Assembly: GCA_038046625.1 (NCBI GenBank)
Contig: JBBSVV010000007.1
Span: 1 to 10,973 of the forward strand
Direction of reading: 5' to 3'
Length of the DNA: 10,973 nucleotides
Source of the DNA: an archaeon
GTDB taxonomy: Archaea > Iainarchaeota > Iainarchaeia > Iainarchaeales > Iainarchaeaceae
Shown in pieces: positions 7,562-9,745 of this stretch (position 1 is the stretch's first letter; the number at the start of each line of letters is the position of its first letter). The notes under the pieces were generated by a model. That model was not told the DNA's origin. It saw only the letters and a list, made by a program, of their open reading frames with translations, and did not search any database. The position numbers were made by a program, and so were the translations under genes.

Positions 7562-7981
7562 ATGGCGCAAAAATTTTATCTTGATACCGCAATCTGGCGA
7601 GACTACTTTGAGGACAGGAAGGACAACCTCAGGCCGCTTGGCGAGTTCGCATTTCGATTTCTGAAAGACTGTGAAAAGAAGGGCTGCACTATTTTGTATT
7701 CCTCTTTGGTGGTCGAGGAATTGGAATCGCATTATTCCAAAGAAAGGGTTGCCGAGGTTTTTTCCTCATTCAGGCACATGCTTGCTGAAGTCCCTATTTC
7801 GGGTGTGCAGATTTCAGAAGCGCGTAAAATCGTGTCATCCACAGAAGGAACACATCTCAAGGATGCCGTGCACGCAGTTCTCGCAAAAGACAACGGAGCA
7901 ACAATGATAGCAAGAGACAAGCACTTTGAGGCCTTAACCGAGATTGTAGAAGTTGCAAAGCCTGAAGACATTCACTTTTGA
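7562..7981 (+). CDS. PIN-domain (VapC-like) ribonuclease toxin
   Basis: FYLDTAIW (first catalytic Asp), 'SSLVVEEL', 'KDAVHAVLA' and 'MIARDKHF' supply the four PIN acidic positions. TTTTAAAA at 7527-7534 fits a leaderless start. Confidence 0.9.
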   Translation: MAQKFYLDTAIWRDYFEDRKDNLRPLGEFAFRFLKDCEKKGCTILYSSLVVEELESHYSKERVAEVFSSFRHMLAEVPISGVQISEARKIVSSTEGTHLKDAVHAVLAKDNGATMIARDKHFEALTEIVEVAKPEDIHF

Positions 7982-8265
7982 GCAAATTTCTTCTCAAGCA
8001 TTCCTATGAACTCTTCTCCGGCCTTTTCTGTCAATGCCCTGAATTCCTCATCAGTCTTTGCCTTCCCTTTGCCCTTGAATATTCCCCTTGCCGCAAAGAG
8101 TGATGCCCATGCCTTCTTTTTACGCCTTTCCTCTTCATTGGCTTTGAGTTTGTCCCTGATGGACTCCCGGATGAACTCGGTCTTTGTGCTGTAATTGAAC
8201 TCCTTAATGTCCTTGTCAATCTGCCTTGCAATGGGCGTCTCTAATTTGATGCTCACATGCTCCAT
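7972..8265 (-). CDS. Ribbon-helix-helix (CopG/VapB-like) DNA-binding protein, putative antitoxin
   Basis: MEHVSIKLETPIARQIDKDIKEFNYSTKTEFIRESIRDKL shows the RHH pattern (alternating beta strand, helix, 'YSTKTEFIRESIR'). Confidence 0.85.
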   Translation of the reverse strand: MEHVSIKLETPIARQIDKDIKEFNYSTKTEFIRESIRDKLKANEEERRKKKAWASLFAARGIFKGKGKAKTDEEFRALTEKAGEEFIGMLEKKFAQK

Positions 8266-8295: not shown

Positions 8296-8315
8296 AACTT
8301 TCCGTTTCAGGCCAT

Positions 8316-8546
8316 TTACTTCTGTTTCCTGGCTTCAGCCATTTCTTCCGCCAGCTTCTCCGTTTTCAATTCCTTCCTTTTTTCTCTAAGCTCATTAGGC
8401 TCATTATGCATCTCGAAAAACCTTTCCTCATTTTCAAAACGCAGTTTGATTCTTTCGTGCTTCTCCTTGAACTCAAAAATAACTTTCAAGTATGCTTTCT
8501 CCTTCTCAATGCACATCAGATAATCCGATTGGAAACTGTGTTCCAT
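8316..8546 (-). CDS. Hypothetical small charged (E/K-rich) coiled-coil protein
   Basis: 76-aa ORF just downstream of tRNA-Tyr, with protein-like E/K-rich composition and no recognised motif. Confidence 0.6.
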   Translation of the reverse strand: MEHSFQSDYLMCIEKEKAYLKVIFEFKEKHERIKLRFENEERFFEMHNEPNELREKRKELKTEKLAEEMAEARKQK

Positions 8547-8581
8547 GAATTCACTAAGCTCCTTTTGCTCTAAAAGTTAAA

Positions 8582-8823
8582 TCCCCCCTCCCGGATTTGC
8601 ACCGGGGATCTTCCGGTCGCTGCACTCCGCAACGGCTTTGTTTCCAACAACGGAAATTGACGCCAACGAAACCAAGCTTTTACACTTTTCTTTTTCGTTG
8701 ACGCTTTTCTTTCTCCAGAAAAGCTCGCCCTCTTTCTTTTTGGTTGAGCTTTTTCCTTTCTCCGCAGGAGGAAGAAAAAGGTCATTCTACAGCCGGACGC
8801 TTTAGCTACTAAGCTAAGGGGGG
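8582..8823 (-). tRNA. tRNA-Tyr (GUA) with a 169-nt intron at canonical position 37/38
   Basis: Exon 1 (8823-8787): CCCCCCT-TA-GCTT-AGTAGCTA-AAGC-G-TCCGG-CT-GTA-G. Exon 2 (8617-8582): A-CCGGA-AGATC-CCCGG-TGCAAAT-CCGGG-AGGGGGG-A. C1:G72 and A73 are archaeal Tyr identity elements. Mature length 73 nt. Confidence 0.92.
8618..8786 (-). other. tRNA-Tyr intron with a bulge-helix-bulge splice motif, filled with palindromic repeats
   Basis: Central helix C32-U33-G34-U35 pairs with intron GCAG. The 3-nt bulges are AG/A and CG/A, with cuts after the second bulge nucleotide, and a short flanking AU/GU helix follows. Confidence 0.85.
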
Positions 8824-8875
8824 TCCATTTGCAAAGAAATGTATGTAAACATTGGATTTTGACGTGTTTTTAAAT

Positions 8876-9745
8876 TTAATGAGCCGTGGCCGGACCGCGT
8901 TTTATTGCGATTCTCCCGTAAAGGGCAGGGTATGCAAAGGTTATCCAGGCGCCCGCGAGGAAATAGGCTTCGGCCGAAACCGCGCTGAACTGCGTCAGCA
9001 CCACAATCCCGCCAAGCCCGGCGAAGCCGATTATTTCCTTTACCCAGAGTTTTTTTCCAGAGAGCTTCTGCGAATCCATGTTCATTAATTTGAACGCGAA
9101 CACCCCGCCGAAGTAACCCAAAAATCCGCTCGCAATCGCCAGGTCGCGCAATGCGAGCGAAACCACTATCCCCAAAAGTATTGCGCTAACCAAGCCGATT
9201 TCCTCGAGCACGCGCTTCTGGTTGAATTTTATTTTCGCGAACTGCTGCTCGACATAGTGCACAATCCTTCCAATGAGGAAACCGAACAAAGCCCCTACAA
9301 TAATGTCGCCGATAAAATGTGCACCAAAGTAAACCCTCGAGAAAAGCACCAAAATCAAAATCGCCAAGCCGAACAGCTTCGCGTTCTTCGCGAACATCTC
9401 CCAGTAATAACCGAAGATCCCGCTTATCGTGGTCGCGTGCCCCGAAGGCAATCCATAAGGAGAGTCGGTTTCAAAAACCAGCACGCGGAACTCTTCAGGA
9501 GAAGGCCGGAGCCGCGCGGTCAAGGGCTTCAATAGGCCTACGAGTGCAGCAGCAAAAAGGAGTGTCACCGTGAGGAAAAACGATTTCTTTTCCTCGCCCT
9601 TCCAGTACAAAAATGCGGACAATGCAATCCAGAGCATCGGGTTCCCGAGCTGCGTGAGCACGAGGAAAAAATAGTCGGCGGAGGAATTTGAAAATGACTG
9701 CACGAAATGGCTGAACCAGATTTCCGCGCTCAAGGGCTCGAACAT
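8876..9745 (-). CDS. PAP2-family membrane phosphatase
   Basis: K-x6-RP (KPLTARLRP), PSGH and SRVYFGAH...D motifs, with multiple TM segments. Confidence 0.93.
   Translation of the reverse strand: MFEPLSAEIWFSHFVQSFSNSSADYFFLVLTQLGNPMLWIALSAFLYWKGEEKKSFFLTVTLLFAAALVGLLKPLTARLRPSPEEFRVLVFETDSPYGLPSGHATTISGIFGYYWEMFAKNAKLFGLAILILVLFSRVYFGAHFIGDIIVGALFGFLIGRIVHYVEQQFAKIKFNQKRVLEEIGLVSAILLGIVVSLALRDLAIASGFLGYFGGVFAFKLMNMDSQKLSGKKLWVKEIIGFAGLGGIVVLTQFSAVSAEAYFLAGAWITFAYPALYGRIAIKRGPATAH

Follow-up and report, generated by a model that had tools for sequence, protein, structure and literature searches.

A long tRNA-Tyr intron in an Iainarchaeaceae genome is built largely from two copies of a dispersed repeat associated with gene borders

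The stretch of DNA analysed here (the window; 10,973 nucleotides, nt) begins contig JBBSVV010000007.1 of assembly GCA_038046625.1, from an archaeon of the Iainarchaeaceae, and carries on its reverse strand a tRNA-Tyr gene with a 169-nt intron (Table 1). The intron is long because it contains two tandem copies of a lineage-wide repeat, units A and B of about 40-55 nt each, which together make up about 94 of its 169 nt (about 60%). The reading favoured here, with a probability of roughly 0.7, is that of a working, cis-spliced tRNA-Tyr intron, the bulk of which consists of two tolerated border-seeking repeats followed by a conserved 3' module.

The original prediction, made from the sequence and its open reading frames (ORFs), had proposed an unusually long tRNA-Tyr intron flanked by a motif of the bulge-helix-bulge (BHB) type, and both features were confirmed. 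With introns allowed, ARAGORN calls tRNA-Tyr(gta) at c[8582,8823] and sets the intron between positions 37 and 38. Once joined, the exons make up a cloverleaf of 73 nt, which is also obtained on folding (-35.1 kcal/mol) and carries A73 and C1-G72, the archaeal tyrosine identity pair. The gene is missed by ARAGORN in default mode and by Rfam at the gathering score, and is not among the 30 matches of the Rfam tRNA model over the whole genome; such genomes would therefore be scored as lacking tRNA-Tyr by default tRNA finders and the Rfam model. In the source genome (G000; 986 kb, 57 contigs, 84.6% complete), ARAGORN in intron mode makes 34 tRNA calls, of which only one is tRNA-Tyr, and no second match to its exons was found, which answers the earlier question of whether this is the sole tRNA-Tyr gene within the limits of that completeness. 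The genome also encodes a splicing endonuclease (PF01974, 90.3 bits, 207-aa ORF in the C4:8542-8802 region). Contigs from runs X2, X4, and X6 of studies P1 and P2 each hold window positions 8300-9100 in one piece, with one difference, at 8440 and thus outside the gene; one of these three samples may be the window's own source. Misassembly of the locus, named beforehand as a finding that would overturn the prediction, is unlikely because three assemblies from two studies hold the stretch intact. In X4 and X6, two joints that span the intron (8617 to 8786/8787) and lie in contigs of low depth were considered as intron-less alleles and rejected; other or unknown sequence lies between their exons, and they are read as tRNA-Tyr genes of relatives.

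Around the intron borders, hand pairing followed by a constrained fold places the two splice sites in 3-nt bulges on either side of a 4-bp helix. With intron nucleotides numbered 1-169 in the RNA sense, the central helix consists of C32-G167, U33-A166, G34-C165, and U35.G164, and the bulges are formed by A36 and G37 with the first intron nucleotide, A(i1), and by C168 and G169 with A38; intron nt 1-4 belong to the motif. The intron folds at -53.1 kcal/mol (z = -3.03), a value matched by 2 of 200 shuffled sequences. All of the stacked inverted repeats listed in the original prediction were recovered, 8661-8671/8693-8703, 8703-8710/8717-8724, and 8719-8726/8746-8753 as exact inverted repeats I2, I5, and I6 of a repeat search, and 8641-8646/8651-8656 and 8749-8763/8767-8780 as hairpins of the RNA fold, the former with 6 bp including one G.U pair on the RNA strand. 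Its recurring unit GCTTTT(T)C(C)TTTCTCC corresponds to direct repeat D1, whose copies at 8687-8712 and 8733-8758 are 81% identical. The possibility that the end of exon 1 had been copied to the intron 3' end as a target duplication was rejected, as the introns of relatives end in GUGCGGUU; the likeness of the two segments is explained by the near-palindromic CUGUAG/GCAG pairing. A 71-aa ORF (8570-8785, reverse strand) whose start is an ATG at intron nt 2-4 was likewise rejected, relatives having AACGAC or AACAAC at this position.

Table 1. Coordinates in the window of the tRNA-Tyr gene, its intron, and the parts of the intron
Feature	Position	Strand	Basis
tRNA-Tyr(GTA) gene, exons and intron, 242 nt	8582..8823	-	ARAGORN intron mode; exons single-copy in genome
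Exon 1, tRNA positions 1-37, ends CUGUAG	8787..8823	-	ARAGORN
Exon 2, tRNA positions 38-73	8582..8617	-	ARAGORN
Intron, 169 nt, canonical position 37/38	8618..8786	-	ARAGORN intron mode; fold z = -3.03
BHB 5' strand: tRNA nt 32-35 (central helix), A36 G37 with A(i1) (bulge), intron nt 2-3 (inner helix)	8784..8792	-	Hand pairing and constrained fold
BHB 3' strand: intron nt 162-163 (inner helix), 164-167 (central helix), 168-169 (bulge with A38)	8618..8625	-	Constrained fold, alignment
Unit A, intron nt 5-58: pyrimidine arm 8767-8781, purine arm 8749-8763, spacer, mirror purine tail 8729-8741	8729..8782	-	Multi-copy; orthologs
Unit B, intron nt 63-102: truncated pyrimidine arm 8717-8724, purine arm 8703-8710, tail 8685-8695	8685..8724	-	I5, D1
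Stem 2, intron nt 83-94 with nt 116-127, encloses unit B tail	8660..8704	-	Inverted repeat I2 and alignment
Hairpin 3, intron nt 131-146	8641..8656	-	RNA fold

In unit A, nt 6-20 form the pyrimidine arm and nt 24-38 the purine arm, with a loop of 3 nt between them, and a spacer of 7 nt separates the purine arm from the purine tail at nt 46-58. Unit B is built alike, except that its pyrimidine arm is truncated. When the intron was compared with its own genome by BLAST, nt 5-58 and nt 72-110 gave many partial matches, of which the best (89% over 55 nt) adjoins tRNA-Trp, whereas the unique 3' part of the intron had no significant match elsewhere in the genome. Iterated nhmmer searches seeded with intron nt 1-62 gave 76 matches on both strands, which collapse to 39 loci in the 986-kb genome; the units are thus multi-copy, and the single-copy state that would have spoken against invasion by repeats does not apply. 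Read backwards, the purine arm of every complete copy gives that copy's tail, which is thus a mirror repeat and not the Watson-Crick complement of the pyrimidine arm. Such a tail is present in 31 units. Among 34 long pyrimidine/purine hairpins chosen regardless of their tails, the tail matches its own reversed arm with a score of 0.84 and the arms of other copies with 0.69, and none of 10000 permutations reached the observed value, a result that is inflated by the shared descent of the copies. The score is at least 0.85 in 20 of the 34 hairpins, and 25 distinct arm sequences have a matching tail. The order pyrimidine, purine, mirror purine is that which defines the class II intrastrand triplex motifs of bacteria, reportedly treated by Hoyne and colleagues in 2000, and the opposite strand has the pyrimidine-type order. 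By its sequence signature, the unit can be assigned to this type of motif. Purine-type triplexes are reported not to tolerate RNA strands, and the intron RNA in the tRNA sense would therefore form plain hairpins.

The repeat is associated with tRNA genes. Nineteen of its 39 loci are either located in a tRNA intron or no more than 10 nt away from the end of a tRNA, whereas 1000 random placements gave 0.25 on average and never more than 3. Sixteen of the 34 tRNA genes are touched by a unit. Orientation could be set by the tail for 31 units. In six cases, a stable RNA encoded on the same strand (a tRNA in five cases, RNase P RNA in one) ends 0-6 nt before the unit starts; six units abut a tRNA 5' end in reversed orientation, and another six follow the stop codon of an ORF of at least 80 aa by 0-6 nt; three are in introns and ten elsewhere. 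The unit always faces the gene with its hairpin end, which reads CAACC or ACACC and then a T run, and in the tRNA-Tyr intron the hairpin end of the unit faces exon 1 at 4 nt from the splice site. Because a forward unit also sits at the very end of the RNase P RNA gene (C15:1626-1999, RF00373, 93.9 bits; region C15:1626-2046), the repeat is not specific to tRNAs and marks the ends of stable-RNA genes. By visual reading, the intron starts with a unit in five of the ten intron-bearing tRNA genes, namely tRNA-Pro(CGG), tRNA-Ser(TGA), tRNA-Arg(CCG), the gene at C7:20707-20914, and tRNA-Tyr.

Several of these sites deserve separate description. ARAGORN annotates C7:20707-20914 as tRNA-Ala(GGC) with a 121-nt intron; the gene looks more like a tRNA-Ser(GGA), because its 5' part is nearly that of tRNA-Ser(TGA), its loop reads CU-GGA-AU, and it has a long variable arm. 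Its intron consists of a forward unit and then a reversed one, like a tRNA 3' flank fused to a 5' flank. In tRNA-Pro(CGG) (C23:1786-1929), the unit occupies a 69-nt intron and has a 9-nt direct repeat, CGTTCGGGT, on either side that covers the anticodon loop and looks like a target duplication from insertion of the unit. Just past the window, at C7:11080-11205, a unit lies near tRNA-Thr(TGT) between direct repeats of about 48 nt that include the tRNA 3' end; this site adjoins a run of N. At C50:150-215, a unit in reversed orientation precedes a fragment that looks like a tRNA-Cys 3' end, and both this site and C7:11080-11205 have TTCTGG in place of the T-loop letters. Reversed units were seen by eye to abut the first nucleotide of tRNA-Gly(GCC), Val, Arg(CCG), Arg(GCG), Ser(TGA), and Cys in G000. 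In the one flank that was counted, that of tRNA-Gly(GCC), the reversed unit puts a T6 run at -34 to -29, and the unit-free tRNA genes checked have a TTTAAA or TTAAAA box at about -37 to -28. The strands of a reversed-unit flank come in the order U-rich, U-rich, A-rich, and then the tRNA. In MALAT1, a triple helix is followed by a tRNA-like RNase P site, and the reversed-unit flank with its tRNA has the same topology. A second repeated module (CCTTGTACCCAAAGGGTACGAGG, then another hairpin) occurs at C15:493-600, C18:3900-3986, and C36:250-334, downstream of truncated units after two tRNA genes and at a third site.

Comparison at the level of the order, which rests on 41 genomes, showed that the intron at position 37/38 of tRNA-Tyr is widespread. 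It was found by ARAGORN in 22 of 31 loci fetched from relatives, with lengths of 45-218 nt, so that the comparison of intron lengths called for at the outset could be made across the order. The loci left out of these counts are L012, which is not tRNA-Tyr, L013, L019, L023, and L031, which are other isotypes, and L021, L025, L030, and L032, for which ARAGORN made no call; L014, whose ARAGORN parse looks wrong, was kept. Of the 23 tRNA-Tyr introns (G000 and the 22 relatives), 17 have at least one unit near the 5' end, including introns from two other families of the order, and in six no unit was detected by script. One relative, G011, has a 45-nt intron without units, in which only the 5' AACGAC, one small hairpin, and the 3' tail are kept; unit-free introns of other content measure 106-218 nt. 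L022 (G038; 139 nt), L027 (G033; 106 nt), and L029 (G035; 218 nt) contain several other hairpins and no unit by script, a short unit being visible by eye in L029. Since these long introns occur in other families, a long tRNA-Tyr intron seems to be an order-wide trait that is independent of the repeat. In the tRNA-Tyr intron of G015 (L016), a similar pair of hairpins takes the place of the unit.

Unit A is closer to its counterparts in other genera than to its copies in the same genome. It agrees at 55 of 58 positions with the tRNA-Tyr intron in G021 and in G022 and at 52 of 56 with that in G007, the junction after the tail included, compared with 49 of 55 for the best paralog in G000. This argues that the two-unit state is old. 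Between G000 and G021, 34 of 37 positions are identical in exon 1 and 58 of 62 in the unit A segment, and conservation is lower in unit B (32 of 41) and in the 3' part (35 of 65, plus 11 gapped columns). Close relatives nevertheless differ in unit number. In G001, a genome of the same genus, the intron measures 117 nt and has a nearly identical 3' part but no unit A, whose absence is a clean indel of about 49-52 nt, depending on the alignment, bounded by CTTTTTCT and GCTTTTCT and with an imperfect 8-nt repeat at its edges that is itself part of the units. This difference more likely reflects a loss of unit A. Unit B is the only unit in G001, G012, G002, G019, and G009, and genera g2 and g4 each contain genomes with only an A-type and genomes with only a B-type unit, g4 also having both together. 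The simplest reading of this distribution would be an old A+B arrangement with repeated loss of one unit through recombination between similar arms; repeated exchange is possible. The earlier suggestion that repeats had expanded within the intron thus holds in part: the units are multi-copy and their number differs, as in G001, but the expansion is not recent, as unit A is orthologous in three genera.

Stem 2 arises from pairing of the unit B spacer (nt 83-94) with nt 116-127, downstream of the units, and is followed by hairpin 3. The conservation of these elements was assessed in an alignment of seven pre-tRNAs from four genera. The sample is small, its genomes are related, and one of its own sequences served to draw the structure. 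All seven retain the pairs of the anticodon stem, of the 4-bp BHB helix, and of the 2-bp inner helix. In stem 2, 92.9% of the cells are paired and both sides have changed in 4 of 12 pairs; for hairpin 3, the corresponding values are 86.5% and 2 of 6 pairs. When the 3' partners are shifted by 1-3 columns, pairing falls to 32-51%. The 3' module (stem 2, hairpin 3, and the BHB strand) is therefore supported as a putative conserved RNA structure in which some pairs are compensatory. The structural side of the structured circular RNA that the original prediction gave as its alternative is thereby supported. Several variants of stem 2 need G.U pairs, and this points to selection on the sense RNA.

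No known guide RNA was recognised in the intron, although the best-known long archaeal tRNA introns, those of tRNA-Trp, contain one. The absence of a clear RUGAUGA/CUGA pair, as stated in the original prediction, was borne out: neither the C box (RUGAUGA) nor CUGA occurs in this intron, and a C box is found in none of the 23 tRNA-Tyr introns examined, so a box C/D guide was rejected. A search of window positions 8500-8900 against Rfam at E values up to 10 gave only sub-threshold matches and no snoRNA-type match above threshold; the best match, CRISPR-DR57 (21.7 bits against a cut-off of 39), was rejected as a chance match to a hairpin. An H/ACA guide was also rejected, the ACA after hairpin 3 being confined to G000 without a counterpart in relatives. 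In the same genome, tRNA-Met(CAT) (C41:17355-17556) has a 127-nt intron without the repeat unit and with CTGA motifs, one of them near the 3' end; this may be a different kind of long intron, possibly one that bears a guide RNA.

According to the favoured reading, the pre-tRNA would be transcribed through the intron, and nucleotides 32-35 of the anticodon loop would pair with the last intron nucleotides to form the BHB motif. The splicing endonuclease would then cut in the two 3-nt bulges, and an RtcB-type ligase would join the exons and probably circularise the intron. The units would fold as self-contained hairpins between the two BHB strands and would be tolerated as passengers because they are spliced out, the 3' splice site being presented by the 3' module with stem 2, hairpin 3, and tail. 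Differences in intron length would arise by gain and loss of whole units, probably through recombination between similar pyrimidine arms.

A number of observations weigh against this reading. Splicing itself we infer from sequence features, and the BHB motif is not ideal, its inner helix consisting of only two pairs, A2-U163 and U3.G162. The BHB-constrained fold (-85.4 kcal/mol) lies 5.2 kcal/mol above the unconstrained minimum free energy (-90.6 kcal/mol), as the 3' strand can instead be drawn into a small competing hairpin. No match to RtcB was found in the 84.6% complete G000; it was found in all 22 other genomes of the family. The statistics of the mirror tail are, as mentioned, inflated by common descent. 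Two observations agree more with a functional role than with a pure passenger: unit A is conserved between genera to the same degree as exon 1, and most relatives have the unit at the 5' end of the intron. The main tension stems from a T5 run in unit A, 8 nt into the intron. Oligo-T runs are archaeal termination signals and occur directly 3' of many tRNA genes in G000; transcription past the T5 run of unit A is an assumption of the favoured reading.

This tension leads to an alternative in which the units are functional gene-end modules, that is, oligo-T terminators or insulators, and in which tRNA-Tyr output is attenuated by a terminator behind exon 1 or its halves are transcribed separately and joined in trans like split tRNAs. 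Forward units indeed take the position of terminators, starting 0-6 nt past the 3' ends of tRNAs and of RNase P RNA and past ORF stops, and their pyrimidine arm opens with a run of T4-T6. In the five tRNA introns listed above, the unit was seen by eye to start directly after the anticodon loop, and the paired forward and reversed units of C7:20707-20914 resemble two gene flanks that have been fused. By visual inspection, however, the 3' part of the tRNA-Tyr intron contains no promoter-like TTTAAA-type box such as other tRNA genes have about 30-36 nt upstream. Moreover, the BHB strands pair in cis in each of the seven aligned pre-tRNAs, and T runs are shorter in intron copies than at gene ends (mean 4.3, n = 6, versus 5.4, n = 15; one-sided Mann-Whitney p = 0.013, for small hand-listed sets), which suggests that termination is selected against in introns. 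A role as gene-end modules appears rather improbable for the units of this intron. The excised 169-nt intron might instead be a functional, stable, and probably circular structured RNA for which units and 3' module have been kept. Excised archaeal introns are known to circularise, as stated in the part of Danan (2012, PMC3326292) used here, and the low folding energy (z = -3.03), the compensatory changes in stem 2 and hairpin 3, the exon-like conservation of unit A, and the order-wide occurrence of long tRNA-Tyr introns, including those of 139, 106, and 218 nt in unit-free families, would agree with such a role. On the other hand, no RNA family matches the intron (best Rfam score 21.7 bits against a cut-off of 39), C/D boxes are lacking, the unique 3' part is without a significant match elsewhere in the genome, and G011 does with a 45-nt intron that has neither units nor stem 2; the conserved pairs may serve only to present the BHB motif. 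We regard this alternative as unlikely. That the locus is a pseudogene or an assembly artefact is hardly credible: standard tools do miss the gene, but its cloverleaf is intact with C1-G72 and A73, it is the only tRNA-Tyr found, its exons and intron position are conserved in 22 relatives, and three assemblies agree.

Beyond the favoured reading of a cis-spliced intron with tolerated repeats, a more far-reaching proposal can be made tentatively and with more doubt than confidence. A border-seeking repeat with a triplex signature, which marks tRNA 3' and 5' ends, the end of the RNase P RNA, ORF stops, and the starts of at least five tRNA introns, might insert into anticodon loops and thereby seed or enlarge introns. 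If so, the end of exon 1 would be treated like the end of a gene, and the 9-nt duplication in tRNA-Pro(CGG) and the unit pair in the class II tRNA at C7:20707-20914 would be fresh examples of unit insertion. Archaeal tRNA introns would then be gained and enlarged by a concrete, observable route, which could potentially split genes as well.

Downstream of the tRNA-Tyr gene, the window contains a PIN-domain ORF (7562-7981, forward strand) and a ribbon-helix-helix ORF (7972-8265, reverse strand). These resemble the parts of a toxin-antitoxin system, yet they lie on opposite strands.

The routes by which introns of archaeal tRNAs originate and lengthen are an open question, and how they arrive is also left open in the part of a 2026 preprint on Asgard tRNA introns considered here. 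In the present case, length differences could be traced to whole repeat copies, and gain and loss can therefore be counted on a tree. The tRNA-Tyr intron resembles canonical BHB introns in its location at 37/38, the two 3-nt bulges around a 4-bp helix, the presence of the endonuclease gene, and exons that restore the cloverleaf. It differs from them in its length of 169 nt (up to 218 nt in relatives) and in that about 60% of it is a genome-wide repeat; in the section of the 2014 review used here, archaeal tRNA introns are given as 11-129 nt long with medians mostly of 12-25 nt (Yoshihisa, 2014, PMC4090602). With the box C/D intron of tRNA-Trp, as outlined in the same section (PMC4090602), it shares its length, its structured nature, and the canonical site, but not the guide, given the lack of a C box in 23 tRNA-Tyr introns, of CUGA in this one, and of a snoRNA-type Rfam match above threshold. 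The repeat unit in turn is reminiscent of the bacterial PIT/BoxC/TMECO element, a dispersed intergenic repeat described by Holder et al. (2015, PMC4666352) as a class II intrastrand triplex motif with pyrimidine, purine, and mirror reverse-Hoogsteen purine domains. The likeness is one of sequence signature and extends to the order of the domains, the pyrimidine-type opposite strand, and the dispersed distribution. Unlike that element, the unit is A/T-rich, archaeal, and tied to gene borders and tRNA introns, and it shares no sequence with TMECO; the words "tRNA" and "intron" are absent from the main text of Holder et al. (2015, PMC4666352).

Like miniature inverted-repeat transposable elements (MITEs) and repetitive extragenic palindromes or bacterial interspersed mosaic elements (REP/BIME), the unit is short, forms hairpins, occurs in many copies, and is present or absent between close relatives. 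Unlike MITEs, it has no clear terminal inverted repeats. Target duplications are not evident at the tRNA-Tyr units, whereas direct repeats flank the copies at tRNA-Pro(CGG) and tRNA-Thr(TGT). An autonomous partner was sought by PF01797 only, and this model of the Y1/RAYT transposase had no match in the 84.6% complete G000. The REP/MITE-like label of the original prediction therefore does not apply in its classical sense, the unit having a mirror purine tail and no such transposase having been found. Transposition of tRNA introns has reportedly been described for Thermoproteales by Fujishima and colleagues in 2010. As in that case, related sequences occur in the introns of different tRNA genes and intron content is linked to mobile DNA, but the unit is found mostly outside introns, at gene ends, and the tRNA-Tyr intron predates the turnover of its units. 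A mobile-element model of tRNA gene disruption is also put forward in the portion of Sugahara et al. (2012, PMC3293823) considered here. The literature surveyed on archaeal tRNA introns and repeats, DPANN, and triplex elements, with subscription-only papers outside its scope, describes no such repeat in archaeal tRNA introns or at tRNA gene borders. The type of intron and the bacterial triplex-type repeats are thus known already, and lengths of 169-218 nt exceed the 11-129-nt range in the cited section of the 2014 review (PMC4090602). What the present analysis adds to these known systems is an account of how the tRNA-Tyr intron is put together, the finding that unit A is orthologous and as conserved as the exons, the 3' module with its conservation, and the rule by which the repeat is oriented at gene ends, those of RNase P RNA and ORF stops included.

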